A program made the position numbers and the translations under genes. DNA of 63,953 nucleotides, filler included, from Stramenopiles sp. TOSAG23-6 (Eukaryota), in assembly GCA_900128565.1 (NCBI GenBank). It is 9 parts of 9 records of this genome, joined end to end, with 100 filler letters (N's around TTAATTAATTAA, not from the genome) between each part and the next. Parts side by side here need not be neighbours in the genome. Positions count along the whole stretch, not along the records: positions 1 to 8,742 come from LT636417.1; positions 8,843 to 17,548 come from LT636418.1; positions 17,649 to 26,354 come from LT636419.1; positions 26,455 to 35,159 come from LT636420.1; positions 35,260 to 43,958 come from LT636421.1; positions 44,059 to 52,757 come from LT636422.1; positions 52,858 to 61,555 come from LT636423.1; 2 more parts are not named here. One strand, 5' to 3'. Positions 91 through 56,437 of this stretch are shown here, one piece after another. The stretch's first letter is position 1; each line of letters begins with the position of its first letter. The notes under the pieces are model-generated. The model was not told the origin of the DNA. It ran no database searches and saw only the letters and a list, made by a program, of their open reading frames with translations.

Positions 91-3000
91 CTATACCTGT
101 AATAGAATTCTTTTCCATTCACTTACGGAAGAATCATCCTCAAAAAGTTTATACCTAAAATTTTCTATTTGCTTTTGAATTTTCCTATTGTACTCAACAC
201 TACTTCCTAAACGTAATGCGATTTCAATATAAGCCTTTTTATCCTTTGCTATACAGCAAGAATCCGTTTCAGTGAGTATTTCCATGAATTTATACATGTA
301 TTTTGGAAAAATATTTGAAAAAAAATTCTAAAAAATTTTGTGAGGTACAAAATTTTTATAAAAAAAAATTCGTTTTTTTTTTTCGGTTTTTTCGGTAAAA
401 AACCGAAAAAAAAAAAAACATAAAACATACATTCATCTAGTCAAAGCTCCAGATAAAGTGGTGCTTTGTAGTGTCACAATAGGTGTCCCTACGGAGAAAC
501 CTTCCAGACTTGTGACGCCTCCTCCGAAAGGAAATGGATCTAACAATGCCACAGAATTGGCCATTAATGTATTTTGGAAAAATATTTTTTTAGTAAAAAA
601 TCTAAAAATATTTGTTAGGTACAAAATTTCGTACGAAAACCAAAAAAAAAAAAAAAATTCAATTTTTTTTTAAGGCTCAAAAATAAAAAAATAAAACATA
701 CATGCTAAATATAACTTTTGTGGGAGGCGAGGCGTTACAATAAGTCTTTGTAGAATTGATTCTTTTTCAAATTCGTTAATTATAACTTTTTCTGTTTTTT
801 TACCNTCTGTAGTAAAAAAAAGAGGAACATTTTTATCANCTTTTTCATCTATTATTTCATTTTGAACAATAAAAAATTCATTCATTTGAAGTTTCCACCT
901 CTTTCGCATTCGAACATGTGCTATGAAAAAATTANTTTTTTTTTTGTTTTATTGTTAGGTACAACATTTCGTATGAAAAAAAAATTATAAAAAAAAATCT
1001 CAAAATAAAAAAAAACGTTAGGTACAACATTTCGTATGAAAAAAAAAATTATAAAAAAAAATCTCAAAATAAAAAAAAAACGTACTTCCCATTTTGGACC
1101 TTCTNGAATAAAAACAATAATTNCGTCTGGATCTAAATAAAGCAAGTTCAGAATGACATAATCAAAAGAAGGGTGTAATTTCATTTGGAAAAATATTTCA
1201 AAAAAAAAAAAAATTTGAAATTGAAAAAAAATAATAAAAATATTTCAAAAAAAAAAATTGTTAGGTACAAAATTTTTATAAAAAACCAAAAAAAAAAAAA
1301 TTGAAATTGAAAAAAAATAATAAAACGTACATTTCATGACACTTTGGGGGCATGAATAAATTTTTGGTGACGTTGTACGTGTGCTAGATAATGGCTTTAT
1401 ACCNATANGTTTTCGCATTTGATTAATAATATGTAAAGAGCTTTCTTGTANATCTTCATTGTTTTTGTCATTAGGGTTAGGGTTATAATTATTATTTTCA
1501 CCTTTACTTTTTGACTCTTTCATCATATATAACCCTAACCCTAGATTATTTGTATGTGAAAATAGTTTTGCCCACTTGGGTCGTTTAAAAAAAAAACTGA
1601 GAGCATTTAGTTCTAGAAGTCTTTCATGGAAGGTATCCGGGTAACGGTAATATATTTGAGCTCTAGATTCTCTACAGGTCAAATTTTCATCTGTTGAAGT
1701 GTTGATGAAATTATTAGTAGTACTAATAAGTTCATTCGCATCAATTTCATTACCATTATCATTATGTTCAAACTTTTGTTCTTTGAAATGAGAAATAGCT
1801 TGCTTCAATGAATCATTGATCATTTCAGTGTTTTTCGTGTTTTTAGGGTTAGGGTTATCACAAATTATTTCATTAGGGTTAGGGTTAGTATCAAACTGAA
1901 GTGGCGGAGATAAAGGAGTAAATGTAAAAAATTTTGATGACACAAAATAGTCAATTGAATCAAGACCTGTCGTGCTAGGGTGACCCCAAGTCATAATTTG
2001 TGAAAAAATATTTCAAAAATTCCATTTGTTTGTTAGGTACAAAATTTCGTACGAAAACAAATTCGATTTTTTTGTAAAAAAAAAATTACAAAAAAAAAAA
2101 AAATTGAAATTCATGATGAAAACATATATAATTTGAACTGGTGCGAGTCTAGAGTATGCAAGCAAATACGTAAACGGATCCATTCCAATACTGAGATATA
2201 CGAGAATATCTAAATTCAAATCTGCAATTTGTTCCCGNGCAAATAGATTTCCAATTGGAAGATCAACAAACTTCAAAGATTTGTTTTCCATTAATTGAAT
2301 TGTTTTTTTGTCGTGTTTTTCTTTAGAAGTCAAAGATAAAATGTAAACATCAAAATTTTCATCACTTGAAATATTGTGTATAATACCACAGAATAGTTTG
2401 CATACAGGATGTGAGTAGAAATATGCCGAAATGAAACCGACACGACGTTTCGTATTTTTTACAATTTTAAAATTTTCTGTATTTTTTGTATTTTTTGTAG
2501 GGTTAGGGTTTACATGTTTCGATGTGTACAAAAGTTCAGGGAAAATACAACTATTTATTAGAGATATAGCCTGAGATACATACTTATCATTATATCCTTG
2601 ATATGTCAAATAGAAAGTAGATGGTAATGATTGAGAGTTGAAAGAGAATTTCTCTACTTTTTTTGAATTTTTAACTTTGGTACAATCTTTAGCCATCTTT
2701 TGAAGAACCTCAGTGAGGTCCAATACTAATTGATTTCTAACTGAGGTGACATGTTTTTCAGAATTATAAAATTGTGGTAGAGAAAGCACCCTTTGAAGTT
2801 TCAATGACATGTTTCCTGGCTGTAGTGTACAAGCTAACTCAAGTTGAGATGTCGCCTCAACGAAGTGACCTGCATGCATTTTGGAAAAATATTTCAAAAA
2901 AAAATTGTTAGGTACAAAATTTCGTACGAAAAAAAAACGAACTTGAAAAAAATAAAACATACATTATACAGTTTTTTGCTTAAGCCGATAATACCTCGGA

Positions 3001-3914: not shown

Positions 3915-6900
3915 TCACCATAATAATCTCTTCAGGAGTATATTTTCATTTAAATATTTCAGAAATGGTGTAACATAAAAATCCGTAATGAAAGGAAATT
4001 GCTTGTTAACATCCACATTTTGTGGTAAGGCGATAATGGCAACTTTGTTATTTTCTAAATATTTCAATTTTGAAATCATGAATTCAAATTCACTAATCAT
4101 AACATCTTCATTCAAAAACAGTGAAACTTTAAATGCCACTCCATCATTCGTCATGAATTGATAACTAGTATCACTTTGTATTCTCTTCAACCCAGATTTG
4201 TCTATCTTTTCATTGCGGGTATTTACTCGTAGTGTTTTTACAATTTTTATGCTTTTTAATTTAGTATATGTCACTTTGACAACAGTTGCAACTGCTACAC
4301 TATTTGATAAATACATTGTTTTTTTGAGAGCATCTGTTTTCCCACTTTGAATAGAATCGATGATATTAAAAGACTGAGCTTTGAACTTTTTCTTCAGGTC
4401 AGTTATCAATTTTTTGTTTGGTGTATCCGCACCAGTATTCTGAACAATCTGTAGAAATCGATGATATGCTGCTTCCTTAGATTTAATTTTGCCTCGATAA
4501 ACTTGAATGCAATCTAAAACAGCTGTTAGATCTCGTAATACAACTTTAAGTTCACCAAGTCTATATTTGCTTTCTCTAATATCGTCACTTATACCACTAA
4601 ACATTTCGCTCACAGCAAAGGGATTCTCGCGTTTTGATTCTTGGAAAACATGTGTAACGTGATCAATAGCTTCTTTTATAGTTGGTAGTTTTTGGAGTCT
4701 TCCTTTTTTAATTGCGTTTTTTGTAACTTCATATAATTCCTTTAGTTTCAGTTGAAGGTTTTCTTCATTAAATGATTCTATATATTCAAAATCATCAAGT
4801 TCACTTAAAACAGTCTTTACGGCCGATTTGCTCTTAGAAGTATCCATTACAGATTCCTCAACAAAAGTCATTGGATTCACATGTGTTGCAGATAAATTAT
4901 AAGGTAATGGTGTATCACAGAATGCACAAATTTGAAATTCAGAAAAATCAAGTTTTCTAACTTCTCCGATTTCTTCAAAATTATTATACAATAAAATAGA
5001 AACAGAGTGATTATTTTCAGGTGATCGCAGTTTTGACTTGCCTGTTGCTTCTCTAATTGCATCCATTCGGAAAAGACTGTTTACTGCGGATCCAAAAATT
5101 GGATATTTTGTACACGTTTGCTTCGAAATTTCCAAAAGTTGTCTCAAGTATATGAAGTGATTCACTTTTATAAGAGTTAAATTTTCTTCAATATTACAAA
5201 AATTCATGTATATATCCAATTTGAGCCAGTGGTTGAGGTTGTGAGGCACTTCATATATATCACTTAAACTATTTTGAATATCTTTATATCTAGTTTTCAT
5301 TTCAGAATTAAAAGGTTTCATCCATGGATACTTTCTAGTACTATATCTTCTATTTGTCAACATTCTATTGAATATTCTTATTATAGTTGATAAATTGTAG
5401 TGTTGGGCTACAGTTAATTCTGTATCTATTACATCCCATTTTTGTGGTTGCAAAACAACGGGTGCGATAAGATGTTGTACAATCATTTCTGCTATTAAGG
5501 ATTGGTAGGATTTATACACATTTGCAGAAAGCTCNCCATGGAGTTTGATTTCCGTTGCATTTTTCAAATGATTCAGGATAATACATGCACCAGGATTAAG
5601 ACCAAAGATTACATTGAGAGTACCCTGTAAAAGAGGTCGAATGAAAGTGATCAGAGTTTTGACATTTCGATTCACCGCAGCGCGTACGTCATGATTTTCA
5701 ATGTAAATCTGCAAACGTTGCTTCGCGTCAACATCAGTGACGATGTTTTCTGCGTTTTCCTCATTTCCATCAAGAATCTGTTGTACAATTGCTGGATCAA
5801 TTGATAGCTTATTCGATTTTATTTTACCAGCAGATTCCGATTTATAATCAAGTAACACATTGATAGGGTCAATTAGATAAGATTTCAAATATCCGATTAT
5901 GTGCGAAGATGTAAAATAATTTCTCATCAAAGGTTCATATACAGTATCCAGACGTGGAATTACTTTATCATTTTTTGAAAATTCATTTGTAATGATTAAA
6001 CACAAAATTTTAAGAAATTTGTGTTCATTCTCGGGAAGTGACAAATCTCCATATACACTCAAAACAAGATTCGAGAATAGTACAGCATCTTGTCCACCTT
6101 TGCCCATTTCTTCTTTGTTTCCTTTACTTTCACTATTATAGATAGAATGATCTAAAAAATTTTCCTTGTGGAGACTATGTATTATGAAAAATTATTTTTT
6201 CAAATTATTTTTTGTTAGGTACATCATTTACTACTAAAAAAGTTTTGGTGAAGCAATTAATTTTGAAAACTTGCGAAAATATTTCAAAAAAAAAACTGTT
6301 AGGTACAAAATTTCGTATGAAAAAAACGTACACTGAAATAACACGGATGCAAACGCAGCAAGGAGAATATTATACAATATTGTGGGAGAAACCCGGTAAT
6401 GTCGTACGGGACTACTCTATAGGAATGCTTTGGTGGTTCAAATTGTTTTTGTAAACTCGATTGTAATATTAAATTAATACTATCTGAAAGCGAGGAAATC
6501 TTATTTTTCACTGCTGAGAAAGAATTTGCAGATTTATGAAGCATGTATTGTGAATATATATATTTCTTAAAAAAACATTTTTTAGGTACAAAATTTGTAA
6601 TGAAAAAAAATGAAGTAAAAAAGTAATCATGAAAACATACATATCTTGTCGTTGTTTCACTTCAGCCAATGCCTTTTCGAGGTCTTTTTTGATAGTTTTT
6701 GATTCGTTTTTTACATCAGATTGACAACGAAAGAGAGATTGTTGCCAACCATCTGCAGCTGCATTCTTCGACTCGAATTCACCCATACTTTCTTCTTCAT
6801 CTGGAAGTGATTGCTCTTTATTGTCTTTTGATGATTTATTATCTTTTGTTGATTTATTGCCTTTTGATAATTTATCCATACGATTGCCAACATTGTCTCT

Positions 6901-8504
6901 TGATGATAAACGACCTGTGTCCTCGACTTTTATCTGCTTCTCATCTTTTGATAAGGTGATTATAATCTGGGCATAGTTGGCATGTTGAGAAAATATACTC
7001 TCTCCATCCTCATTTATACTACGCATTCGTTTATACCCCAATCGTCCTGACGTCCCACACCCCCAAGCATATAAAACACCATTNGCTGAATGTGCAATAG
7101 CATGATTGTTGTAAGCTTTNACAAATCTATTATCTTTTAAGTGATGTTGATTTGGTTTTAAATCCAAATCAGTTAAATATTTATGNTTAATCATTCGCTT
7201 GACAAGATTCGGTTTTTTACTGTCCAAATTATTCGCTAGTAAGCCTTGTCCAAGTTTACCATGTGTGTTGTGACCCCATGACCATACTCGACCTTTGCTA
7301 TCGAAGCAAAGAGAAAAGTCTTCAGCCGCAGAAATTCCATCAATTGATGANCCGATGCCTTTAAAAAATGTATTTAGCTTTGGTAAAGTTTGGTTTCCAA
7401 GTTCTACCATTCCCAATAAACCTTCATTTCTACCCCAACAGAATAAATTACCNACACTTATTGCTAATGTATGATAAGATCCACATGACACATCACTCAC
7501 TTGAGAATACTTCAGTTTGCCTACTGTATTTTAGAAAAATATTTCAAAAAAAAACCCCTAAATTTGTTAGGTACAAACTTTTTATAAAAAAAAAAATTCG
7601 ATTTTTTTGTTAAAAAAAAAATAAAACATACATACTCTTTGAGGTTCGTAGTGATTATATATTGGAAAATATATATCAACTTTGAAATTTGTTAATATAC
7701 TTGATCATTTTTTAATGTACTCTATGAAAAAAAAATGAAATTCATGATGAAAACATACATGTATTGTGAAAAAAAAAACACACTCAAAAAAAATTTGTTA
7801 GGTACAAAATTTCGTATGAAAAATAAAACAAAATTAAATTTGAAATTCATGATGAAAACATACATCTGTGCTCCCTAGACCTAATCTACCGAACCAACCA
7901 CCACCCCATGTATATAAATGAAAATCGGAGGTCAAAGCAGCAGCATGGCACATTCCTAGTGAAACTTTTATGATGGCTTTTGATTTCAAGTTACCTGTAA
8001 CTTGTGCAGGCAAACTTCCTCCTTTTCGTGTAACCTGACCTCTACCTAACTTCCCAAAGTCTGTTGATCCCCAAGTTAATAGTTTATGTATTTTGGAAAA
8101 ATATTTGAAAGAAAAAAAACTTTAATTTGTTAGGTACAAAATTTACTATAAAAAAAAATTCGAATTTGAAAAAACATAAAACGTACACCATCATCTAATA
8201 TTGCAGCAGCATAATTCTCACCCGCGGCTATGGTTTTAACTTTCAAACCTTGTAATGCAATAATGATTTGAGGGATTTCTCTGTTTATTGATGTACCATT
8301 TCCCAGCTGATGTTCGTCTCCTTTTCCCCATGATAAGACTTCATGATTTTCTGTCAATGCTAAAGTGAATTCCGCTCCACATTCTACTTGGGAAATAAAA
8401 ATAGTATTTAATGAATCGATTACCAAAGGTACTCTTTGCATAGATTTACTATCTGTAGTGGCATTATTTAAACCTAATTGCTTATACTCGTTGTCCCCCC
8501 AACC
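3915..8504 (-). CDS. RCC1-repeat + RasGAP (IQGAP/GAP1-like) protein, 5' partial; introns 8086-8186, 7759-7863, 7657-7758, 7524-7631, 6543-6640, 6177-6331
   Basis: RCC1 repeats (VECGAEFTLAL..WGKG..QLG, SCGSYHTLA, WSWGHNTHGKLG) splice in frame to a 730-aa ORF with RasGAP-like segments (LIAPVVLQPQKWDVID, NLSTIIRIF, PWMKPFN). Confidence 0.7.
7759..7863 (-). mobile_element. Introner-like GT-AT intron directly abutting a second family intron (7657-7758)
   Basis: GAT|GTATGT...GTACCTAAC...CACAATACAT|GTATGT...CCAATATAT|AAT. Removing both gives GRLGLGSTD-NHYEPQRV. Confidence 0.8.
8086..8186 (-). mobile_element. Introner-like GT-AT intron
   Basis: GGT|GTACGT...CCAAAATACAT|AAA restores the RCC1 segment AAILDDG-KLLTWG. 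Confidence 0.85.
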
Positions 8505-8742
8505 ATGTTTTGTAGGAAAATATGTTCAAATTTGTTTTTGTTAGGTATACAAATTTCTACGGAAAAAAAAAACTCATGTCAATGTTTTTCTTTAGGTACA
8601 AAATTTTCTATAAAAAAAAAACTACATTTGAAATTCATGATGAAAACGTACATGGCAAAAAAAAAAAAAAAAAAAATCAAAAATTTGTTTAGGTACAAAA
8701 TTTCGTACCTAACAATTTTTTTTAGATTATTTTGAAATATTT

Positions 8743-15598: not shown

Positions 15599-17496
15599 AT
15601 GCTTCCCAGCGACGACGTTGGCAAGCTTTCTTTGGTACCCTCAACACGGGTACAAAATGGGAAACAATCAATTGCCACAACTGTTTTAAAAAAGCTACAT
15701 TCTGCACTTGTTTCAGGTCAGTTGAAACTTCATCCACTTGTTTCTCTTGTTTCAAAAAATACTTCACTTTTTTCGGGTGAAGGACTAAGAAACTTAGACT
15801 TGGATCTTGCCCATGTGCTTGAAGCTCGCCTTCATCGATTAGAGTATGTTGAAGCATTGGAGAAATCTAGAAATATAGTTCATTCTCGGTATTCAAAGAA
15901 GGCTGCATTAAATATGAATAAGAGCAACCGTCTGGTCATCGAAGCTATTCTACAAGCTATATTTTCTGCAATGTTAGGAACCGAGTCCAAGAAGAAAGAG
16001 GAGGAGGTAATAGTGCTAGAGCGGCGTCTCCGTGAGTGCCAGAGTGAAAGTAGACGCGTAATATCACATACAGTACAGGCTGAGAAAGATCACAAGAGAC
16101 TCGTTCACTTAATATCAACCGCTACTACCAAAAGACTATCCATGGATGAACTACCAAAGACTAATAGGACTAGTAGTAATAGTAGTAGGAATACTAATGC
16201 AGGAAAAATAGTGGACGATTTTCATAGTTTCAGGGATTTACTTTTACCAATAGTATTAGCACAATTGCATTTTTGTGATAAACAAAGCGGAAATTGTACT
16301 AAAAATGATTACTTGACTCGGAAAAACCAAACAGAACACGAAATGGCAAATGAACGAAATTCTGCCTTTGAAAAATTATCGGCTGCAAAAGCTGAAATCA
16401 TCTCTCTCAAGGAAATGCTGAAAAAGAATAAATCACACATACATTTAAACAAAACAGAGAACCCTAACCCTAACCTTGATGAATCAGATTTTCAATTAAT
16501 ATCAAAGATAATTCATGGAAGCTCCAATAAAGAAAATAAACCTCATGAATCTCATCAATCTGAAATAAACCCTGACCCTAATACATTTGAAATTGAGAGA
16601 TTAACTGTAGAAATCAGTAGATGGAAACAAATGCATGTATGTTTTATTTTATTTTTTTTTTTTAAATCGATTTTTTTTTTCGTACGAAATTTTGTACCTA
16701 ACAATTTTTTTAGAATTTCTTTGAAATATTTTTCCAAAATATATTCTGATGTCATCCTCCAATGTGACAAATATTCGAAAAAATTAGAGGAACGTGAATC
16801 TCAATTTGAAATAGAAAAAAAAGAAAATTACAATAAATATGAATCTGAATTGAAAATGTTGAAAGAAAGATGTTGTAACGATAAAAACTATTCATTACAA
16901 AATTTATCTGCACAGCATCGGCTAGAAATTCAAAAATTGAATGATAACTGTATCGAATGGAAATCAAAATTTGAGCATTTAAAGAATCGTGAAAATGAAT
17001 GTTTTATTTTTTTTTTTACAAAAAAATCGAGTTTTTTTTTTCGTACGAAATTTTGTACCTAACATTTTTTTAATAAATATTTTTTCACAGTACATGAATG
17101 GTCTGCTAATGCGGAACGCGAACAGCGAAATGCCAAGAAGAAATTAGTTTTATCTCACAATGAAGAATTAAAACATGTCACGGAAAACCAAGAGATGAAA
17201 TATAAATCCATCATAGAAGACATCAAATCAAGAAATGTAAAAGATATGTACGTTTTAAAAAAGTGAATTTCAAGTTTTTTTTTCATACGAAATTTCATAC
17301 CTAACAAATATTTTAATTTTTTTGAAATATTTTTCACTCACACATTGAAAAGTTAGAATTGGAGATGGAAGAATGGAAGGCAATGTATGATAAAACTGTT
17401 GATGAACATTCAATTAAAATACGTGAATTGAATAGATCTAATACGGCATTAATTGCTCAAATTAAAGAAGGTCATGAAAAAGGGTTTCATAAGCAT
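15599..17496 (+). CDS. Coiled-coil protein of unknown function, 3' partial; introns 16637-16744, 16997-17095, 17248-17345
   Basis: Long ORF continues in frame across three family introns; E/K-rich heptads. Confidence 0.7.
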
Positions 17497-18074
17497 GTAT
17501 GTTTTATTTTTTTTTCAATTTCCAATTTATTTTTCGTACGAAATTTTGNNNNNNNNNNNNNNNNNNNNNNNNNNNNNNNNNNNNNNNNNNNNTTAATTAA
17601 TTAANNNNNNNNNNNNNNNNNNNNNNNNNNNNNNNNNNNNNNNNNNNNATTGTTTTTGAAATATTTTTCCAAAATACATATTTGATGAGATGCAAGCTGC
17701 AGGTTATCGTCCAGATATTGTTGCGTATACGTCCTTAATGCATGCAATGGCACAAAAGAAAATGGGACGTGCAGCAGAGGCTGTGTTTCAACAAATGTTA
17801 TCATCAGGTATTCGGCCAAATATTATAGCATATTCGTCTTTAGTCAATGCGATGGCTCANNNNNNNNNNNNNNNNNNNNNNNNNNNNNNNNNNNNNNNNN
17901 NNNNNNNNNNNNNNNNNNNNNNNNNNNNNNNNNNNNNNNNNNNNNNNNNNNNNNNNNNNNNNNNNNNNNNNNNNNNNNNNNNNNNNNNNNNNNNNNNNNN
18001 NNNNNNNNNNNNNNNNNNNNNNNNNNNNNNNNNNNNNNNNNNNATTGTTTTTGAAATATTTTTCCAAAATACAT

Positions 18075-26299: not shown

Positions 26300-26590
26300 A
26301 TGTATTTTGGAAAAATATTTGAAAAAAAAAACTAAAATTTGTTAGGTACAAAATNNNNNNNNNNNNNNNNNNNNNNNNNNNNNNNNNNNNNNNNNNNNTT
26401 AATTAATTAANNNNNNNNNNNNNNNNNNNNNNNNNNNNNNNNNNNNNNNNNNNNACCAAGATTTCGTGTCAAACTTTCAATTTATTCGTCGTTAAACAAA
26501 TGTCGCCCACAATGTCATGATAATTTAGATTTGATTGTATTTCTGAATAAATACACTAATTATAGAAGAATGATTAATGGATAACGTGTT

Positions 26591-43119: not shown

Positions 43120-43873
43120 TTAATAAATTAATTTAAAACAAACATGATTACTTGCTTCAACTGCTGTAATTCGTTCCTCTGGTTTATACCGTAACAATTG
43201 ATCTAACAAATCTATAGTTTCTTTATGTACATTGTTCCAAATTTCAGTTTTATCATTTACAATTTTTTTTTGCACGAAATCATGAAAAATATGTTCTTTG
43301 TTATTTTCATCATCAAATTCAGTATACACGAAATCCATTGGTTTAAATGGCATTTTCCCTCGAAGTAACATATAAAAGACAACTCCAATACTCCACATAT
43401 CTGCTTGTAAACCATATCCTTGACCAATAACTACCTCGGGTGCAACATAACCATGTTTTATTTGAAAAATATTTTTTTTTTTTGGTAAAATTTGATTTTT
43501 TTTTTTTTNTTAGGTATGAAATTTTTTTACGAAAAAAAAAAAAAAAAAAAAAATCATAAATTTGAAATTCATAATGAAAACAAACATGACTTCCAAGAGG
43601 AATGATGAGTGATCTACGCCCTGATCTACTTTGACTTGAAGGTGCAACTAAAGTTGAGAATCCAAAATCAATTAATTTTATCGCCAATTTTTTTCTCATT
43701 ATTTTTTTAAATTTTACATTTTTTTCAAAATTTTCAAAATTTTCAAAATTTTCTTTTTGTGTTTGCATAAATAATATATTATCTGCTTTAATATCTCTAT
43801 GTGTTATACCTTTTACATGTAAATATTTAACTGCTTCAATAAGACATTTGATAATACATAATGATTCAAATTC
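43120..43873 (-). CDS. Ser/Thr protein kinase (CAMK-like), C-terminal part; intron 43453-43585
   Basis: YLHVKGITHRDIKADNIL, KLIDFG, GSH-GYVAPEV, DMWSIGVV, ERITA. Confidence 0.9.
43453..43585 (-). mobile_element. Introner-like GT-AT intron
   Basis: CAT|GTTTGT...AAATAAAACAT|GGT restores kinase subdomain VIII GSH-GYVAPE. Confidence 0.85.
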
Positions 43874-44091
43874 ATATATTTTTGAAAAATATTTGAAAAA
43901 AAAAAAAAAAAATTCGTTAGGTACAAAATTTCCTATAAAAAAAAAAAAAAAAAAAAAANNNNNNNNNNNNNNNNNNNNNNNNNNNNNNNNNNNNNNNNNN
44001 NNTTAATTAATTAANNNNNNNNNNNNNNNNNNNNNNNNNNNNNNNNNNNNNNNNNNNNGAAATTTGTTAGGTACAAAATTTTTATAAAAAC

Positions 44092-44224: not shown

Positions 44225-46129
44225 ATAATATTTAAAAAATTTGGATTTTCAACAGTCGCTGTTGTTGCTGAATTTGAAGCACTTGCGGAAACCACGGGAA
44301 TATTCCCAGCATCTACAGAAACACCATCACCACTGACAGGCATTGGTGTTACAAGAACACTTGAACTCTCCCCACCAACAAGCTTTTGCTTCTTTGCTGC
44401 AGGTGGATTTGTGTCTCCATCAGCTGTGGCGGTTCCTGCGTGTATGACACCATTTGTCTGCTGCTGTTGCTGCATCGATGCCATTTGTTGTTGGATTTGT
44501 AAGAACATATTCATTTGGTTTTGTTGTTGTAATTCACGNATCTGATCCAGTAACGCTGCGGCTTGTGCGGAATCCATATTGTCTGGAATATTCATTGAAT
44601 TTGGCATAACTGGCATAAGGGATCCAAGCATCGGATTCATGAGACTTCCCATCATTAATCCTGTATTATTTATATCAAGTAAACCTGGCATTGCACTAAA
44701 ATTTCCCATCGCGTCTATCTCACCTTGTGCTTTTTTTGTGCGTCTTTTTTTACTCTTAGATTCTTTTTTTTTGGATCGTTTTTTCGGAGATTTTTGAGTT
44801 TTGGTTTTTGGTTTTGGTGATTTTTTAGTCTTTGCTTTCTTCACTTTTTTTGTACTTGATAAAAGTTGTACATGTTTTAATAAGTCAATCGATATTTCTT
44901 CACCTAACATTTCAGGCAAACCTAATTCTACGGGATTGGCGTTTCCTATTTTCCGTCCTTCGGCAGAGTCTCCATTCAATTTTCGTTGCGCGGCGTTTTC
45001 TTTTAATCCTTGTAACTGCTGATGAATCATAGCAGCGACTTCTTCTTGACCATCAACACCTGACTTTGCTTCATTCTTTGCCATTTTTTTATATCTTCTT
45101 TGAATACGACGAATAGTTGAATAATACCGATTTTTAATGGCATGTATTTTGGAAAAATATTTCAAAAAAAANTCTAAAAAATTTGTTAGGTACAAATTTT
45201 CGTACGAAAAATAAATTCGATTTTTTTTTTTTTACCGAAAAAAAAATAATAAAACGTACATTGTCGGTGCGACCAGGTAAAAACTTGGCGATTTCAGCCC
45301 ATTGGTTTCCTAGCCGTTTGTGATACTCAAAGATTAAATAATCCTCATCTTTTGACCAGGAGCCTTTTCGAACCTGTGGGGAAAGATGATTATGCCAACG
45401 TTCTCTACATTGTTTACCAACGCGACCAGGTAGTTGCTGAGCAATAAGAGACCATCTCTTTGGGCCATACACTCGAACTAATTCAATAAGCTTCGCATTT
45501 TCCTGTGCTGTAAAAATATATTTTAGCGAGTCAATCATTTTAGTATTTCATTGTAGTGTTTCATTGCAGATGGTCTAGTATATAATCTTTTAAGAAAAAC
45601 AAATAGAAAAAGAGTCTCGGAAACTCAGAAGGAAGGAAAGAAAGAACATTTGTCCTGTTGAATTGAAGGGANTTTTTTTTCTTGTGTGGTACTTTGTACT
45701 CATNAGAACAGTACAGTACACACAACAGATGTACACAATAATGATAAATGTGCTATGGAATATATCACATATACACATGAAAACGGAAGAGAAAAGAANA
45801 AACAAAGACACTCGCCGTCGGTAGGGGGAAAAAGTATGGAGGAGGAGCATGAGAGAAAAAAAAATGTTCACCCGAGGAGAAGAAGCGAAACTCTTTNTAC
45901 GAAATAATCTTACAATATGATATATTACATAATGAAAACGTACATCTGCAGACCAAAATCGTTTCGACATTGCTGTATCATCATTCTTTTGTATATCGGT
46001 AGATAACAGAGCTGCCTGAGCTGAAGCTGGAACACGATTCAAGTCTGTGTCTTCATCTTCTCTTGAATCAGCTACTAATGGTACTAATGTAACAGACGAC
46101 GGCGTGGCCAAATCGGCCTTGGCCGCCAT
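44225..46129 (-). CDS. Myb-domain transcription factor, 3' partial; introns 45503-45943 (GT-AG) and 45142-45259 (GT-AT)
   Basis: [68 protein letters not shown]. Confidence 0.93.
45142..45259 (-). mobile_element. Introner-like GT-AT intron
   Basis: AAT|GTACGT...CCAAAATACAT|GCC restores the highly conserved Myb motif GRTDN-AIKN. No AG lies near the 3' end. Confidence 0.9.
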
Positions 46130-46512: not shown

Positions 46513-47468
46513 ATGGTGTTTTCTGGAATTGTTGAGTGCCAAGGAACAATTTTAAGTTGCGAGACAAGTTCTACAGTAAAACTTTGGGACGGATCAGTAG
46601 GAGAAGGTACTGTCCTTAGAGTAGAAAGCATCGGATTCTTTGAAGACGCAACACTTGGGTGTAGTATTGCAGTGAATGGTGTATGCCTTACCGTCGTTGA
46701 ATGGACAAATGATTATGCTGTGTTCAATATTGCACCCGAGACGTGCAATCGTACAAACATAAACACTGCTGAAATGAAATCTGGTGATTTCGTGAACTTG
46801 GAACGTAGTTTATTGAGTAATTCACGAAATAGCGGTCACTATGTTCAGGGTCATGTTGACGGAGTGGGTGAAATTATCTCTAAAGTGAAAGATAAAGATT
46901 CTCTTCTTTGTACAATCCGTGTTTCAGAAAATATATTGTCTGGTATAGTTCCTAAAGGATGCATCTGTGTCGATGGTGTTAGTCTAACAGTCATCGATGT
47001 GAATAGACAATTGAGATTTTTTACTTTCATGTATGTTTTATTATTTTTTTTCAATTTCGAATTTATTTTTCATACGAAATTTTGTACCTAACAAAAAAAT
47101 TTACCAAAAAAAAATATTTTCCTACAATACATGCTTGTATCCCACACTCAGACTATGGTTACCTTACCTAAAAAGGACGTAGGGAAAAACGTAAACATCG
47201 AAGTTGATGTAATGGGAAAATACGCAATAGCACGTAATGTAAGAATAGAACAATCTTTGAAAAATATTGAACGGCATGTATGTTTTATGTTTTTTTTAAA
47301 CAAAAAATCGATTTTTTTTTCGTACGAAATTTTGTACCTAACAAATTTAAGTTTTTTTTTTCAAAATATTTTTTCAAAATATATATTTCATTTCTCTATA
47401 TAGGTTTTTTTGGGGTTTTAACCCTGTCGATTTTGCTTTTAAAAAACAGTGCAAAAAAAAATAAATGA
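46513..47468 (+). CDS. Riboflavin synthase with C-terminal hydrophobic tail; introns 47031-47132, 47278-47384
   Basis: MVFSGIVE, SIAVNGVCLTV, VNLERS, GHYVQGHVDG, VDGVSLTV, VNIEVD. Confidence 0.93.
47031..47132 (+). mobile_element. Introner-like GT-AT intron
   Basis: TTCAT|GTATGT...CTACAATACAT|GCTT gives FTFM-LVSHTQ. The next AG downstream would shift the frame. Confidence 0.88.
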
Positions 47469-47705
47469 TTTTGAATACTGTTTTATTTATATACTACATC
47501 ATATGTATTTTGTTTTTTTTGTTTTTTTTGTTTTCCTCCAGGGTTGGTCATACTTTCATACTACTTGGTAAGAACATTCCAATATATTCTTGATTATATT
47601 CATCTTCAAAATTTTCGTACGAAATGTTGTACCTAACTCAAAAAAAAAAATCAATGATTTTTTTTTTTTTTTTCACACGTTTTTTTTGTTTTCCTCCAGG
47701 GTTGG

Positions 47706-50700
47706 TCATACTTTCATACTACTTGGTAAGAACATTCCAATATATTCTTGATTATATTCATCTTCAAAATTTTCTTGTTTATGACTTTGACCCTTCAAAA
47801 GTCCAAAATTAGCAGTTGCTCTGGTTAGTGCCCATTTATTAACATTTTCAGTAACATGCTTAGCTAATCCATTTTGGTCTTCAACAACATCAGAGTTGGT
47901 TATCGGATCGACATTTTGTAATCTTCGAGATTCGCCACACGATTTGGCAACAACAGCAATGTATTTTGGAAAAATATTTCAAAAAAAAACTAAAATTTTT
48001 TTGTTAGGTACAAAATTTTTATAAAAAAAAAAATCGATTTTTTTGTTTAAAAAAAAATAAAACATACATGTTACCAAACACTCTTCTATGTTGCTTTTTA
48101 TTAATTTCTTTCTTTAAAAAAGCATTTATATCCTGCATTGTACAGTAAATATTTGGAGTTTGGTTTATGTAGATTTGTTAATGAAACAATTTGTTTGTAT
48201 AGCTACTAATTACTCACTCACTTACTAGAGATATAAGAATCTTGGACTCGGAGTAGATTAAAAAATTCAAAAAAAAAACTTGAAATTAAAATTAAAATTA
48301 AAATTAAAATCAAAATTAACAACGTGATCCAAACATACATTTAGTGCCTCTGCTGCTTTACTTTCCCTGATATATAAATATTTACAATTTTTAGAAAACT
48401 TTTTTGCAAATTGATGTGTGATTTTAATCATTGCTGCTTCATTATTACTAAATAAATGTTTGTGTCGCTTCAATTTTTCAATAATAAATTTTATATCTTT
48501 TCGAAATCGTTCGAGTTCCTGACTTTCTTGTTGATTGGCTTTTTGTAGTCGTTGGCGTTGTACATTTTGATGATCTTCATCATCGTCATCATTAGAAGAA
48601 GAATCAAATTCTTGTTTAAACTCATCTAAAATNACTTTTCCGATTGCTTTATCTCGATTTCTTAAATGTCGTTTGGCAATTTCTAATTTACGATCAATTT
48701 TTTTAGCTCTCACCTCTGTACTCATGGACCAAAAGACTGTCCTTCTATGTTTCTTATGCCCTAACCCTAATGTCTTTTCCACTCTATTTGTATCACTACT
48801 TTCTAAAATATCATCTCCAATCCGANCACACCATTTTCTATTTTTCATTGCTGCATCTTCTGCATCTATTTTAGCTTGTAAAGCAGCTAATCNTGTCTTT
48901 TCTTGATCATTCCATCCTGAAAGTGTTTCTGCAATGGCTGCTGTATCATCGTCCATCAATGTTGAAATAGANCCTAAAGGTATTTAGTGTACAACAAATA
49001 TTCATTTTAATTTTTGTTAGGTATGAAATTTCATAGAAAAAACAATTTCAAAAATATGATCAAAAATTCATATTGAATCAAAACATACACNACTTTTGTA
49101 TTTTTGTTTTTTTTGTTTTTTTTGTTTTTTTTATTCACTTTTTTTAGTTTTTTTAGCTTATTCTTTTTACTCCCTGGCACCCATTCATCATCATCAATAC
49201 TTTGAGAACTTTCTTCATCACCTGTATTAGACTTACCAGCAGCATCGGTAAAAAATAATACATAATATTCATACACAGATTTAGATGTTGCCAACCATAA
49301 CAAAATGGATAAGGGCAAAATTGTTGAAAGAAGTGTCACATGTACTATTTCACAATAGGTAAAATTTTTGTTTTCGTTAGGTACGAAATTTTCATATTAA
49401 AATAAAGATTAACAATTAGGGTTAGGGTCACAAAATAATTTTAAATATTAGAAAAAAAACAGTTTGAATCAAAATTCAAAAAAATTAAAAAATTCATGAT
49501 ACCCAAAAATATTAGGGTTTAGGGTTGATACAAATCTCAAAGATATCAATCGTAAAACGTACAGCAGGCCATGAAATATTTGGATTATTTTCTGAACTGA
49601 CAAAAATTGATAAAATGCAAGTTAATAGTAAAATACTACGAATAATAAACGAGGTCTGATTCATACTAAAGTCTCGATATTTTGGTCGAAAAAACTGAGC
49701 AACAATCAATATTATGGAGAAAAAACAACACACAATCGAAAATATTGGAACTAATTCTGATTGCGCCAATGCAGCTCTTGCCACTGACATGAAACAGATA
49801 CACACTGCTGTGATAGTATTTGTCTGTAAAACAAATTTAGGGTTCGGATTCGGAGCACATGGACCAAGTTCAACTGGATGTTGATGAATACGTGCTTTCC
49901 AACGGCCAAGGAAATGTTGACGAAGGCGATCTTGCACATTCATTTTAGATGCACCGCGTAGTAGATATGAAGTATGTCCATCGACAGCATACAACCGCAC
50001 AGCATATGCCATATACGGTATTATTAAACACGATGTAATAAAGACGCGTAGCATGTGTAAACCTGTAAAACATGTCACTTCAGGAACGGGAAGCCATCGT
50101 AATACTGTAAGAATTGAACCATAATATGGATCACCTACTCGGCATACACTAGATATAAATACTGTAGGAATATCAACGACACAGTCTAATTTACGATACG
50201 ATGATACACGAGTCTTTACGACTTTCAGCTGAATGACACCATCACCAAGGACAGGCCGTTCAGCATATTCTGAAGTAGTAACACTTTTAACTCCAAATTT
50301 TGTTCGTTGTAGTATTTGATCGCATCGGGGTTCATAATATACATTGTTTGATTTTGTATCTTCACACTCTGCACGACTACTTACAGGAAGTTCTTCTTCC
50401 TGGTATTTACAATATTTTCCATTAGTACTACCAACATCTTCACATGCTNCTTTACGACCGTTTCCATTAGGCAACGTCTTGAGACTTGGGCATAACACTG
50501 CAGAGTTACNATTTTCGTGTTTTTGAATACAATCTTCAAACACTAGATAATTATAATTTTGCATNGATATGTCTTTTTCTATGTATGTGCACAAGCCAGC
50601 AGTAATACANAAACTACGATTTTGTGCAACTGTGTTTTCATCTTTAAATTTTGTTTTTGCTTCTTTGCAAATATCATAGCAAGCTTCTGCTTTACAGTCA

Positions 50701-51818
50701 TCATCTCTTTGAATAATAGGGTTTCGTCTAGTNCATCCGACCCAACTAGAGTCAGGTCGTCGACAAATATCATCAGCGAAATTCCAACTGTTCCCAGTTG
50801 CTTTGATTTCACATGAATCCTTTGATAAAGCAGCGCGACCNTTGGTTGCNTCAGGCCATGGAATCACATCTTTNCCACTTGAATCTACACATCTTTGCGC
50901 AGTGTATCTATTTCGTAATTTATCAGCACTCCACCGAACGCATTCATTTTCATCTGATGCATCATGTATAGGATGATTTCCATCTGCCCATATATTACCC
51001 AATCCTCCTGTATTAATTAATTCACCATAATCCACTTCACAACTTTCCTTATCAAATGCTTCGGCTCTGGAATGTGGACCCCAACACGAATCTATATCTC
51101 TGCAATGCGATTGAGTCCAAAACATATCTTGATTTTGAAATAATGAAGAATCAGATCCACCGAGTGATACAGACCACGGTATGCCACCATTTTCTTTACA
51201 TACAGTTTCAGGGGAGTCTAATGGAAACCATGTTGCAGTATCCACTTTTATAGATTGACAGGTAAATTGATCAAATAATGTCCGAAGTGATGGTAAAAAT
51301 AAAATGGTAGACATACACCACAAAAAGATACGACCTAAAAATTCTAAACGTTGAGCACTTTGTAATGTTCTTTGGAAAAATATTTCAAAAAAAAANTCTA
51401 AAAAATTNGTNAGNTACAAANTNTTTTGAAAAAAAAAATTGGAATTTGAAAAAAAATAAAACATACATGCAACTTGAGCAAATATTAAATCTGTCTTTTT
51501 TACATTTTTTTTCTTTTTTTTTGTCAGTTTTTCCCAGTGCTTTTGACTCTTTACAAATTTTGATGCTTTTTTAAATATTTTTTTTGTATTTTTTATTCTT
51601 TTTGTACTTTTTTTATTTTCTGTATTTTTTTTATTTTCTGTATTTTCTGTATTAGTACAACTGATATCCTCTGTTTCATTATTATTATTGTTTCTATTTG
51701 TAGTACATTTCGTTGTAGGTGAAATATAATCAATGATATTTGTCTTATATTTTAATAAAATAACAAGTAAAGATTCAACATTATTATTATTATTAGTAGT
51801 AGTAGTAGTATCATTATC

Positions 51819-51853
<35 letters not shown>

Positions 51854-52692
51854 TAGGCTTAGGGTGATTTTTTAAGAGTTCATCATATAAAACATGCATA
51901 CGACCACGATAGTTTTGAATCATTTGTTCTACTTCTAAAGAATGAGGTTCATCATTCATCTCTATATAAAATACTTTGACAGCCTCAACACATTGTGTAT
52001 AATATTCTTCAGTNGCTTCATTCACTTCTTTTTCAGAATAATCTAAATTTTGAATAGTATCAATATTTTCTATATTTTCATTAATAATTTTTAAATCATC
52101 ATTTTGTGAACTCAAAGATGTTTCTGGGCGATTTCGTGTACTCACTGAACTGATTGGTCGGGATGAAAATGGACGAGATCTAACGCTGTAATTGTCGTCA
52201 TCTACATATGTATACCCAGAAACAGGTCTGTGCGACTGTAATAAATCTAAAAGTTTCGCATCGCGGTCATCAGCAGTGAAAGATACATTTTTGTCTTGTA
52301 ATAAAAAGTCATATAATTCGTGCATTCGACCGACATATTGATCAACTATTTCGTGTGATTGATCAGCATGTGTCGTATCATCGTGCTTGAGATAAAAATC
52401 TCTAACTAATTCTTCACATTCATCATAAAAAGCAGCTTTTGCATGTATTTTGTAAAAATATTTCAAAAAAAAATCTAAAAAAATTTGTTAGGTACAAAAT
52501 TTCGTACGAAAAAAAAACTTCGATTTTTTTGTTAAAAAAAAAATAAAACATATGTAGTTGCTTAAAGTTCATCTTTCGATCATTGACACAATCTCGGGCA
52601 ATTGTTGCAAATAACAAACCTAAAGCAATAATAAACGGAATAACCATCAAACTACGAATTTGTTCAAACAAAACAGTCATTTGTTGTTTTGT
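47706..52692 (-). CDS. Large multi-pass membrane protein with a Cys-rich loop, 5' partial, several family introns
   Basis: 984-aa ORF with TM segments (STILFLPSLRTLFDQFTC, CFTGLHMLRVFI) plus flanking exons. Internal exon boundaries between 48100 and 49560 are uncertain. Confidence 0.6.
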
Positions 52693-52879
52693 ATGTATTG
52701 TAGAAAAATATTTCAAAAAAAAAAAACTTAAATTTGTTAGGTACAAAATTTCGTACGNNNNNNNNNNNNNNNNNNNNNNNNNNNNNNNNNNNNNNNNNNN
52801 NTTAATTAATTAANNNNNNNNNNNNNNNNNNNNNNNNNNNNNNNNNNNNNNNNNNNNCGCAATAGATGTAATGAGTGCG

Positions 52880-53580: not shown

Positions 53581-56437
53581 ATGTTGCAACAGCGCAGTGC
53601 ATCAGCTTTCGTAAAGAAACGTTCTCTCCACCGTGCTTTATTTTCAACCTCGCCGAATAAGTTGAAGAACCCCCCCACAAACTTCCCTTCAGAGGCTGAC
53701 GTAGTTGTTATAGGTGGTGGATCGCTCGGGAGTTCCACTCTTTATCATTTGGCAAAGCAAGGTGTTAATGCAGTATTGTTGGAAAAAGATTCAATCACTG
53801 CTGGAACGACTTGGCACAGTGCTGGTTTAGTTTGGCGTTTACGTCCTAATGACACCGAAATAGAATTATTAAATTATACACGCCATATGGCACGCGATGT
53901 ACTTGAAGAGGAAACTGGTCAAAGTCCTGGTTGGATTGAAAATGGTGGCTTGTTTATAGCAAACAATAAAGCTCGTTTTGATGAGTACAAGCGAATGCAT
54001 TCTTTAGGAAATTCTATGGGCGTTGAATCTCACTTGCTTGATGCAGCACAGACAAAAGAAATATACCCTTTAATGAATGTTGAGGATATATATGGAACTT
54101 TGTATTCACCCGGTGATGGTACTGTTGATCCTTCTGGAATCACTGCTGCTTATTGTAAAGGCGCAAAACAGACTGGCAATGCTAGAGTTTTTGAAAATTG
54201 TAAAGTTACAGGAATAAATACGAGTGGCACTGGTAAACAGCGACATGTAGTTGGTGTAGAGACTCCTTGGGGAATGATTAAAACATCACGAATTGTTAAT
54301 TGTGCAGGTGTTTGGGCTCCTCAATTAGGAAAAATGTGTGATGTCAGTGTTCCTCTAGTTGCAATGAAGCATGCATATGTTGTTACTGAACCTATACCAG
54401 GTATACAAGGTTTGCCAAATATCCGAGACCATGACTTGAGTGTATACTTTTGGAATACAGATCCAAATTTTGCCTTTGGTTTATTTGACTTAGATTGGGA
54501 TGTTTTTATGTCACATGTAGAAAATCATATACATAGAGTACCATCGGTGGAAGCAGCTGGTATTAGTAATACTGTATCTGGTCCTGAATCGTTTACTGCT
54601 GATCATAAACCATTAATGGGCGAGGTGCCAGAATTAATTGGATTTTATTTAGGTTGTGGTTTCAATGTAGGTTTTCAAAATTGGATTTAATTTTTTTTCG
54701 TACCAAATTTTTTTCCTAACAAAAAAATTGAATTTAAAATATTTTTTCACGACACATTCTTCAGGAATGATGCTTGGTGGTGGTTGTGGCAGAGAGCTTG
54801 CAACATGGGTTACACAAGGATTTCCAAATCTAGATATGTTTTCATATGACATCAATCGCTTTCATCCAAGTTGTAATAAAGATCAAAAGTGGATAATTGA
54901 CCGAAGTCACGAGTCGTATGCAAAGAATTATGCAATAGTATTTCCACACGATCAACCATTGGCAGGTAGAGGAAAAAGGAAAGATCAATTATTTCGTGTA
55001 ATGAAAGAAGCTGGTTGTGTTTTCCAAGAAAGATTGGGATTTGAACGACCAGGGTACTTTCATCCTGGTGGCTCTGACGTCACAAAGTTAGTCAAATATG
55101 ATTATTATGGTGCTTATTCATCTTTATTAGGTGATAGTAGTTCATCTGATGATAGTTCTGTGGATAGCTCTGTTGATACAATTTGTGTACCTGGTACTCA
55201 ATCATACACTGAGAATTTCCCTGTTTTGCCAAAGTGTGAATCAAATCCATTTGCTGAAAGACTCCAAGAAGATTATTCGTTTCAATGGCCTGTAAATGCA
55301 GCTGAAGGCACTGATGCAAGTATACATTCATTGATAAAGAAAGAAGTCGCTGCATGTAGAGAAAGTGTAGTTTTATTTAATCAATCATATTTTGGTAAGT
55401 TCTTTTTAACTGGACCGGATGCTTTAAAAGCAATGCAATGGTTGTGCACAAATGACATTGATAAACCAACAGGTAGTACCATATATACAAATATGTTGAA
55501 TGATAATGGTAAAGTAATGTGTGATTTAACTGTATCGAGATTAATGCCAAATTCAGAGGGTTACGATAAATTTTATATTGCAGCAGGAGGAGGCTCTGCT
55601 CAACATGATATATCGTGGATACGATCGGTTATACGCAATGAATCATTTGATGTCAAAATAAGTGACGATACTGATAAATATGGATTAATTAGTGTCCAGG
55701 GGCCAAAGAGTAGATCTTTATTACAACGTTTATGTCCTGACGATGAGTTATCATCTGAAAAATTTCCATTCTCAACTCATAGAATAATAACATGTGCTGG
55801 TCATACTGTTCGCGCAATACGTTTGACATTTGTGGGTGAATTGGGGTTTGAACTGCATATACCAAATAATGCAATTGTTGATGTATATAAGGCTTTACAT
55901 GAAGAAGGGGAACGATTTAATGTAATAAATTCTGGTTATCGCGCAATAGATGTAATGAGTGCGGAGAAGAATTATAAACATTGGCATGAAGATTTGCGAC
56001 CGGATGATTCACCACTTGAAGCAGGTTTAGGATTTATATGCAAATTAAAAACTGATATAGATTTTTTGGGTAAGCGCGCACTTCTCAAGCAAAAAGAGAT
56101 TGGTTTACAACGTAAATTAGTATCTTTTACTATTGATGAAAATATTGCATTATTTGGACTAGAAGGTATTTACAGAGATGGCGAACCTGTGGGATTTCTT
56201 CGTCGTGCAGCTCCTGCCTTTTCCATTAATAAAACAATTGGTTTTGGTTATATATCGAAACCGAATACTCATGGTAGTAATGATAATAAAGATGAAAAAA
56301 AAATAACTTTGAAATGGATTAAAGCAGGAAATTATGAGTTGGATGTTATGGGAAAACGTGTTCCTGCTACAGTACATACTAAAGCTGTATTTGATCCTAA
56401 AGGATTGAGAGTTAAAGGTGAATATGAAAGTTCATAG
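53581..56437 (+). CDS. SARDH: Sarcosine dehydrogenase (mitochondrial); intron 54667-54757
   Basis: [61 protein letters not shown], GcvT-like C-terminal half ([13 protein letters not shown]). Confidence 0.92.
54667..54757 (+). mobile_element. Introner-like GT-AT intron
   Basis: AAT|GTAGGT...CCTAAC...CACGACACAT|TCT restores GFN-SSGMM. The nearby CAG would give GAA TGA (stop). Confidence 0.88.

Follow-up and report, generated by a model that had tools for sequence, protein, structure and literature searches.

Introns with GT...AG ends are universal, and the terminal AG is among the most constant of eukaryotic signals. In this study, we analysed 63,953 nucleotides from Stramenopiles sp. TOSAG23-6 (assembly GCA_900128565.1; the whole stretch, filler included, is called the window), where nearly all introns seen belong to one repeated family that begins with GT and ends with AT. 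These are very probably spliceosomal introns of a single copied family, cut at GT...YAT. The acceptor reads YAT in place of YAG, and AG also occurs at that position.

The described systems closest to this family are compared here. The introners of Micromonas pusilla (IE1), Chrysochromulina and Aureococcus are thousands of similar short introns at unrelated positions, with a bias towards genes; the element supplies one of their splice sites, and the duplicated target supplies the other (PMC11282704, 10.1101/2022.06.06.494994). In M. pusilla IE1, the 3' ag is derived from the target duplication (PMC11282704). Introners show genic enrichment in 161 of 175 genomes, and some of those described have no terminal inverted repeats (TIRs) (10.1101/2022.06.06.494994). 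The family of the window resembles them in the number and placing of similar introns and in the proposed origin of its splice sites. Unlike the algal introners, which have GT/GC-AG ends, duplications of 3-8 bp and clearer inverted repeats, it has an AT acceptor, a putative 2-bp duplication and a 4-nt repeat, and nearly every intron seen belongs to it. A recent introner survey gives AG and AC as the only 3' sites.

The introns of Fritillaria borealis that derive from miniature inverted-repeat transposable elements (MITEs) are also similar: most introns there are non-canonical, the acceptor is tied to the preceding exonic sequence and an AT acceptor is possible (PMC11282704, PMC13326754); the AG-AC/AG-AT introns of this species come after exonic TAC (PMC11282704). 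Their donor is AG and their boundaries are diverse, whereas the family studied here, in a stramenopile protist, has a strict GTAYGT donor, a yeast-like branch box and one dominant boundary type. MITEs in general are short, AT-rich and non-coding and are found in both orientations; their TIRs measure at least about 10 bp, and their target-site duplication has a fixed length. The family fits them in size and composition; its TIR is 4-6 nt long, and the opposite orientation occurs only as fragments.

U12-type introns carry the donor RTATCCTT and the branch sequence TTCCTTRAY close to the 3' end. In the window, GTAYGTTTT serves as the donor, with the branch box TACCTAAC at a median of 42 nt from the end, and the family is therefore U2-like. 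The U12 expansion of Physarum polycephalum nevertheless offers a parallel: there, introns with inverted ends between 2-nt TA direct repeats were gained en masse, a DNA element being their proposed source, and some boundaries are non-canonical, as here (10.1101/2020.10.12.336362). It differs from our family in its donor RTATCYTT and in its branch TTTGA, 9-12 nt from the end. The nonconventional introns of euglenids and hemistasiid diplonemids are likewise abundant, lack GT-AG ends and have junction repeats (PMC12621601, PMC11282704). Those introns rely on paired intron ends and have no pyrimidine tract, unlike the present ones with their donor, branch box and T tract. Six of the 41 complete copies were folded as RNA and scored no better than shuffled sequences (z from -1.4 to +1.75); as these intron RNAs are unstructured, end pairing of the euglenozoan type is not the mechanism.

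In the accessible literature, supplementary tables aside and including work on marine stramenopiles (MAST), single-cell genomes and the Tara metagenome-assembled (MAG) and single-amplified genomes, we found no report of GT-AT as the dominant intron class. What sets this case apart from the systems above is that AT is the main acceptor class beside a U2-like donor and branch box of strict sequence, in a stramenopile where one family supplies nearly all introns seen.

Sequence and copies of the intron family

The window consists of nine contigs (seven of ~8.7 kb and two of 1.1 kb) joined by linkers N44-TTAATTAATTAA-N44. The core TTGTACCTAAC, with at most one mismatch, occurs 45 times, 11 times on the plus strand and 34 on the minus strand; at least one of these matches, at 12778 within coding sequence, is due to chance. 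Eighteen clear copies served to build an nhmmer profile, and this gave 64 matches at E<=1, which merged to 48 loci at E<0.01, about one locus per 1.3 kb. The curated set holds 41 complete introns and ten copies cut by contig ends, four with only the 5' end and six with only the 3' end.

The sense consensus, in short AT/GTAYGTTTT ... TTTTGTACCTAAC ... T-run ... CMAAATACAT/G (the slash marks the intron boundary), reads in order AT/GTAYGTTTT, a 5' module, TTTCGTACGAAATTTTGTACCTAAC, a T-run and GAAATATTTTTCMAAATACAT/G. The yeast-like donor, the branch box and the T-rich tract are common to the family. Over the 41 copies, donor positions +1 to +9 are G38 T40 A38 Y40 G40 T41 T41 T39 T41. The first dinucleotide is GT in 37 copies, AT in three and GA in one; the last is AT in 37, AG in three and GT in one. 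Position -3 of the intron is C in 33, T in six and A in two, and position -8 holds A in 19 copies and C in 16. The median length is 107 nt, in a family of ~90-170 nt, and the branch A stands at a median of 42 nt from the 3' end. AG stands at the exact consensus position in copy 7631 (copies are called by the coordinate of their 5' end) and is also found in 33652 and 42609. Three copies begin with A, and for 2127 no permitted shift yields GT. The boundaries are uncertain for 1330, 7863/7758, 8651, 31837, 45943, 49088 and 52553.

In the upstream exon, A stands at position -2 in 33/41 and T at -1 in 36/41. Both letters together occur in 29/41, far beyond chance (background of 0.096 in open reading frames (ORFs) of at least 150 codons; binomial p = 8e-21). 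The base directly 3' of the intron is G in 22/41. Among the partial copies, AT precedes three of the four 5' ends and closes all six 3' ends. The original prediction, made from the sequence alone, had described GT-AT introns of one repeated family behind exons that mostly end in AT, with palindromes in the element body and copies at most contig ends; all of this agrees with the present counts. The palindrome TTTCGTACGAAA has 28 matches over both strands, i.e., 14 sites, and AAATCGATTT has ten, i.e., five sites, both being part of the consensus, and 12 of the 18 contig ends (read from contig and profile coordinates) lie inside a copy. The terminal inverted repeat that it proposed is perfect for GTAT and ATAC only (ATGTAT and ATACAT with AT counted); the longer pairing of GTATGTTTT with AAAATAC requires a bulged G and is restricted to the CCAAAATAC sub-type.

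The likeness between copies extends beyond the splice signals. With the blocks of the donor, branch site and acceptor taken out, the 99th percentile of shuffled sequences was exceeded by 19.5% of the pairs for the 5' body and by 18.9% for the 3' body. The 5' bodies fall into the modules ...CAATTTCGAATTTATTTT, ...AACAAAAAAATCGA..., CATCATGAATTTCAAATTTA... and CAAAAT...; copies 2127 and 32162 are composites bearing two modules, and branch modules are duplicated in several copies, e.g., 64 nt twice at 954-1079. As this likeness is shared in sub-families and composites, the family arose by copying rather than by convergence, and its modules, composites and duplications are, judging by their sequence, those of a repeat family whose members include derivatives formed by deletion and recombination. 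The copies sit in GT41, RCC1, kinase, Myb, PAQR, DMGDH-like and other genes at unrelated positions, so that the 41 complete and ten partial copies are similar introns at non-homologous sites, as in introners. Inverted or antisense fragments were found at 8683-8742, 26081-26110 and 63203-63244.

The high copy number that had been predicted is supported by the broken contig ends and by a seawater DNA run, in which 5464 contigs match one 8.7-kb contig, mostly at copies, with many differing flanks (loose-end agreement of 0.37-0.63). The unique parts of that contig are covered once, at a depth of 5-10. Thus many different loci of the family exist, and the summed depth does not equal the copy number. 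The pattern TACGAAATTTTGTACCTAAC has 16 matches in the window, none in metagenome contigs, none in viral contigs and a single one in the genome collection, in a Bacteroidales MAG, which was taken for chance.

The copies and related features, with their strands, are as follows.

296-430 (-): complete family intron, gaAT/GTATG...ATACAT/g; GT41 gene
567-701 (-): complete intron, gcAT/GTATG...ACAT/; phase 1, frames agree
916-1085 (-): complete intron, ggAA/GTACG...GCACAT/; internal 64-nt duplication of branch module
1178-1330 (-): complete intron, aaAT/GTACG...ATGAAAT/; flanked by 7-nt direct repeat ATGAAAT; internal partial duplication, alternative in-frame 3' ends possible
1993-2127 (-): complete intron starting ATATG; no GT in any register; 8-nt direct repeat CAAATTAT flanks; composite of two body modules
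2874-2962 (-): complete intron, taAT/GTATG...TGCAT/
6177-6331 (-): complete intron, caGT/GTACG...ATACAT/; two branch modules
6543-6640 (-): complete intron, atAT/GTATG...ATACAT/
7524-7631 (-): complete family intron, ...ATACAG/; AG replaces AT
7657-7863 (-): composite; full copy 7863-7759, second 5' end at 7758, CCAATATAT 3' end at 7657, then 25-nt micro-exon 7656-7632; coordinates past 7759 counted by hand
8086-8186 (-): complete intron, ggGT/GTACG...ATACAT/; RCC1 repeat (..LDDG/KLLTWG..)
8505-8651 (-): copy with two to three branch modules close to contig end; no clear upstream exon
8683-8742 (+): inverted partial copy joined at palindromic core; contig end
8843-8907 (+): 3' part of copy, ...ATACAT/; contig start
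16637-16744 (+): complete intron, gcAT/GTATG...ATATAT/
16997-17095 (+): complete intron, GAATG at consensus start; register ambiguous from 7-nt repeat ATGAATG
17248-17345 (+): complete intron, atAT/GTACG...CACACAT/
17497-17548 (+): 5' part of copy, gcAT/GTATG; contig end
17649-17679 (+): 3' end of copy, ...ATACAT/; contig start
19789-19882 (-): complete intron, tgAT/GTATGTTGT...ATACAT/
20090-20182 (-): complete intron, cgAT/GTACG...ATACAT/
24627-24716 (-): complete intron, atAT/GTATG...ATACAT/
24812-24913 (-): complete intron, agAT/GTACG...ATACAT/
25328-25439 (-): complete intron, ttAT/GTACG...CTACAT/
25606-25709 (-): complete intron, gcAT/GTATG...ATACAT/
25894-25994 (-): complete intron, aaAT/GTACG...ATACAT/
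26058-26206 (-): complete intron, acTT/GTATG...CTATAT/; internal inverted branch-module copy
26300-26354 (-): 3' part of copy, ...ATACAT/; contig end
28443-28535 (-): complete intron, tcAT/GTATG...GTACAT/
31733-31837 (-): complete intron, gcAT/GTACAT...ATACGT/; alternative in-frame end TTTAG/ 12 nt downstream
32010-32162 (-): complete intron, taAA/GTTTG...ATACAT/; composite body
32301-32396 (-): complete intron, acCG/GTACG...ATATAT/
32526-32628 (-): diverged copy, tgTT/GTTCG...ATACAT/
33334-33441 (-): complete intron starting ATACG; 108 nt skipped in RNA-library contig
33492-33652 (-): diverged copy, gcTT/GTATG...CTACAG/ (GT-AG); retained in RNA contig lacking 33334-33441
35101-35159 (+): 5' part of copy, gcCT/GTATG; contig end
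42609-42773 (+): GT-AG intron with family-like 5' end, tcAC/GTACG...GTGTAG/; two branch modules; Pkinase gene
43453-43585 (-): complete intron, tcAT/GTTTG...AAACAT/; kinase gene
43874-43958 (-): 3' part of copy, ...AATATAT/; contig end
44059-44224 (-): 5' part of copy, ttAT/GTATG; long T/A run; cut by contig end
45142-45259 (-): complete intron in Myb repeat ..GRTDN/AIKNRY..; upstream exon matches Myb_DNA-binding, cross-join motif by eye
45700-45943 (-): intron with family donor and CATTATG module; unrelated GC-richer body
47031-47132 (+): complete intron, tcAT/GTATG...ATACAT/
47278-47384 (+): complete intron, gcAT/GTATG...ATATAT/
47475-47750: duplicated unit of ~130 nt between two convergent genes; includes the next fragment
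47612-47637 (+): branch-module fragment
47959-48067 (-): complete intron, acAT/GTATG...ATACAT/
48982-49088 (-): diverged copy, ..GT/GTATG...CTAAAT/
49340-49562 (-): 223-nt intron, tgCT/GTACG...GTACAT/; two telomere-like blocks inside
51365-51466 (-): complete intron, gcAT/GTATG...GAACAT/
52443-52553 (-): copy starting ATATG after ctAC; acceptor unsettled
52693-52757 (-): 3' part of copy, ...ATACAT/; contig end
54667-54757 (+): complete intron, caAT/GTAGG...ACACAT/; between DAO and FAO_M/GCV_T domains
61656-61708 (-): 5' part of copy, tgAT/GTTCG; contig start
62855-62987 (+): 3' part of copy, ...ATACAT/; contig start
63203-63244 (-): antisense branch-module fragment inside a Lys/Asn-rich 321-codon open frame, 62990-63952 (+); may be an exonised antisense insertion

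Evidence for splicing at GT...AT

A frame test was used for the examination of the proposed boundaries. For this, the longest open frames before the donor and after the acceptor were chosen independently and joined at the consensus boundaries. The joins were in frame at 34 of the 41 copies; chance alone would give one third. Among the seven misses, 25994, 26206 and 32162 have short flanking exons that are open in two frames, one of them fitting, and 25439 is a 1-nt offset of the end coordinate. The upstream exon of 8651 is not clear, and the frames around 52553 require a removal 2 nt shorter than the consensus (ATATG...ATAC or ATG...ACAT). The last miss, 430, aligns without gaps to two GT41 homologues after removal of its 135 nt, a comparison of low resolution at 29-47% identity. 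An in-frame TGA was seen at 435-433 (-), one codon before the donor of this intron, where the two homologues have Gly. An error of assembly or amplification could account for it, as could a null allele or a decoding of the TGA.

Domain profiles continue over the introns as well. The Pkinase profile goes from position 172 to 177 at intron 42609, with exactly four residues between, and from 153 to 163 at intron 43585. The HlyIII profile goes from 89 to 97 at 31837, with seven residues and a split codon between, and profiles are continuous over 8186 (RCC1) and 54667 (DAO/FAO_M). The support from RNA is one junction, taken from assembled contigs. A 449-nt contig of a polyA metatranscriptome (X8 record 28) aligns to 33128-33330 and then to 33439-33647; the 108 nt missing equal the length of the predicted intron 33441-33334, and an ATA repeat permits a shift of 3 nt. 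Precise removal is thus indicated by reading frames, Pfam continuity and this single RNA junction.

A contig from another RNA run, with the same variant letters as the joined one, reads into intron 33441-33334. In the joined contig, this AT-ending intron is removed and the adjacent diverged GT-AG copy 33492-33652 is kept. The summed depth of intron copies is high in the RNA runs too, a sign of retained introns, of slow splicing or of DNA carried over. Among the rows listed, which are uninformative either way, there was neither a second spliced junction nor, for DNA run X2, an intron-sized deletion, the listed joints being cross-matches between copies.

Where the flank is AT, the registers AT..AC, TG..CA and GT..AT all yield an identical mRNA. 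GT...AT is the sole reading that is consistent across the set, because nothing else fits the 12 copies without an upstream AT and the ATATAT ends. For the same two reasons, an AT-AC reading of all introns (/ATGTA...ATAC/AT) was rejected.

Possible routes by which the family spread

The reading that the original prediction put forward, which we hold tentatively as a plausible one, is that of an Introner with inferred spread at the DNA level. A small non-autonomous element would insert into coding DNA at (C)AT/G sites; its GTAT...ATAC body would supply the donor, branch site and T tract, and the 2-bp AT of the target would end up on both sides of it. The spliceosome would then cut before the GT of the element and after the second AT. 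As removal of GT...AT leaves exactly one AT, the mRNA would be restored exactly, which fits the model of a 2-bp duplication. Sub-families, composites and internal duplications would be deletion or recombination derivatives of the element, and candidates for the insertion chemistry are cut-and-paste transposition that duplicates AT, an insertion that separates the A from the T, or another mechanism. TA-flanked (mariner-like) and Helitron-like A/T registers match the letters and found no further support.

Junction repeats argue for such insertions: compared with permuted pairings, the mean left match is 1.98 vs. 1.72 (P = 0.005), and eight copies have a total repeat of at least 5 nt where 3.6 are expected (P = 0.0004). 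In copies 1330 (the 7-nt ATGAAAT) and 2127 (the 8-nt repeat), the intron 3' end is unlike the consensus and instead agrees with the flank of the same copy. Exon end and acceptor have shifted together from AG to AT, which we count for a DNA element; to our knowledge, no spliceosomal contact links exon positions -2/-1 with the intron end.

Several results weigh against this reading. The 12 copies with non-AT flanks include none whose acceptor matches the flank (nine end in AT, two in AG, and 52553 is unsettled), so nothing specific to the copy ties acceptor to flank at 2 nt. The terminal inverted repeat of GTAT and ATAC has just 4 nt, and donor position 4 (C/T) does not co-vary with acceptor position -6. 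The permutation excess depends on few copies, among them the nested 7863 and 1330 with its alternative in-frame ends. A at -2 and T at -1 are preferred no less strongly than the exon bases of a usual donor consensus, and pairing to an altered U1 could account for this. No complete copy lies antisense or in the ~8-10 kb of the window judged non-genic. There is no transposase, integrase or reverse transcriptase among the 20 ORFs scanned in these 62 kb, a small sample. No orthologous locus, polymorphism or empty site came to light, and the orthologue search with the six-intron GT41 gene gave only relatives of 29-47% identity. Since nearly all introns share the signals, a general splice code is inseparable from a family trait in 62 kb. 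High-scoring copies follow AT at 16/19 vs. 15/25 (counted by eye), a trend that is not significant. What stands of the predicted model is true introns of one family in unrelated genes with the layout AT-(GT...AC)-AT. The origin of the acceptor from duplicated AT fits the flanks (29/41) and the ends (37/41) and has no match at the 12 non-AT flanks, and a transposase-encoding partner did not appear in the window, which is too little to judge by.

We favour DNA transposition only modestly over spread through RNA, which is unlikely in our estimate. Excised introns would reverse-splice into transcripts at AT/G and return by reverse transcription and recombination, and the AT before the donor would reflect which sites the spliceosome prefers rather than any duplication. 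This agrees with the sense orientation, genic location and precise consensus ends of all 41 complete copies, with the lack of any complete intergenic or antisense copy in the window, with the short inverted repeat and the absence of co-variation between non-AT flanks and acceptors, and with the intron-containing forms of the locus in RNA libraries. Genic enrichment, however, is usual for DNA-based introners too, and no known property of the spliceosome calls for exon -2/-1 and the intron end to share a dinucleotide, both of which went from AG to AT. The inverted and antisense fragments and internal module duplications are DNA-level events, eight copies carry copy-specific junction repeats of 5-8 nt, and a reverse transcriptase is missing from the window, though the window is small.

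A little less probable still is that there was no recent mobility, and that these are older ordinary introns, whose splice signals (the donor, the branch box, the T tract and the YAT acceptor) are unusually long and strict on a T-rich background, kept alike, perhaps, by gene conversion, with the exonic AT as the donor consensus of an altered U1. The best-conserved blocks are indeed the donor, branch site and acceptor, the diverged-body introns 45943, 49562, 42609 and 33652 retain the same signals, and the frequencies at -2 and -1 resemble a normal donor consensus. Copies also differ by many substitutions and indels, with no near-identical pairs except the 5' modules of 19882 and 25709. Against this, pairs that are alike beyond the signal blocks are ~19 times as frequent as the 1% that the null threshold allows, discrete modules and composites are shared in unrelated genes, and the conserved blocks of ~22 nt at the branch site and ~22 nt at the 3' end far exceed known snRNA (small nuclear RNA) contacts. 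Copies moreover break the assembly at two thirds of the contig ends (12/18), and very many different flanks are seen in seawater DNA contigs. It is highly improbable that the copies are not spliceosomal introns at all and are removed from or absent in the DNA of some cells or strains, or are assembly artefacts, the joined RNA-library contig then deriving from DNA without the element. That contig is a single one, RNA libraries can carry DNA, and the intron copies are deep in RNA runs as well. The donor, the branch box at a fixed distance, the T tract and the strict sense orientation are nevertheless marks of the spliceosome; in dozens of genes, removal of the copies restores frames and Pfam profiles, copies are present along the entire contig in an independent seawater DNA run, and the RNA-run contig that shares the variants of the joined one retains the intron.

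Returning to the Introner reading, it is possible, though doubtful, that the standard acceptor of this lineage changed from YAG to YAT since nearly all its introns descend from one element whose AT duplication became the 3' splice site, the proto-splice site changing from MAG/G to MAT/G in step. If this is true, transposon chemistry rewrote a splice code, and there would be direct evidence that the proto-splice consensus is an insertion footprint. The joint change of the exon end and the acceptor bears on whether the MAG/G site is a cause or a footprint of insertion. With about nine in ten introns ending in AT and AG still accepted there, the second splicing step can be retuned, and this free-living marine protist offers a natural system for asking how: by U2AF35, by Prp8 or by a pairing between the intron's two terminal bases. 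In practice, gene finders built on GT-AG will mis-predict most multi-exon genes in an abundant, uncultured group, and the assemblies of this group shatter because of the family repeats.

Host and remaining features of the window

The window encodes ordinary eukaryotic genes: an ABCA transporter, Sel1/MYND, a SNARE, RCC1, a NUBP-like ATPase, kinases, a poly(A) polymerase, PPR, H1, a DMGDH-like enzyme, GT41, PAQR and Myb. The Rfam scan of the window found no snRNA genes, and the tRNA scan was also empty. The ORF of the poly(A) polymerase is 84% identical to a EukProt coding sequence labelled with 'MAST32', and next come oomycetes at 41-45%; the host is therefore placed as a marine stramenopile near MAST-3, a MAST-3-like assignment that rests on one protein. 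Searches of JGI proteins with the poly(A) polymerase and ABCA found no close relative, the best ABCA identities being 37-53%. The sequence of contig 2 is present in a small 2015 run of 'organism A', in seawater metagenomes of 2024 and in seawater metatranscriptomes of 2022 and 2024, both polyA and other libraries.

The GC content per 2 kb is 23-38%, and 77 short N runs (<5 N) are dispersed over the window. Tandem arrays with periods of ~103, 96 and 105 nt, at 35260-35911 and 37644-38612, fill a gene-poor, N-rich stretch of 3.5 kb with 23% GC. Identical profile matches to one intron 3' end were found at 17649-17859 and 18044-18254, either side of a gap of 184 N, and are probably a scaffolding duplicate.

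Telomere-like blocks of two units (GGGTTAGGG/CCCTAACCC) occur 20 times in 62 kb, and three units never, where a rough composition estimate made by hand expects <0.1 by chance. The sites include 1474, 1533, 1846, 1876, 2500, 16462, 28020, 28068, 28723, 28921, 33011, 42119 and 49419, and two blocks sit in intron 49562-49340. The blocks are mostly within long ORFs, in both DNA orientations and with a stop-free frame in every case; the encoded peptides are NPNP (~10 times), LGLG (five), LTLT (three), RVR (one) and one other (one). It looks as if a 12-nt unit had been inserted into coding sequence at the level of DNA.

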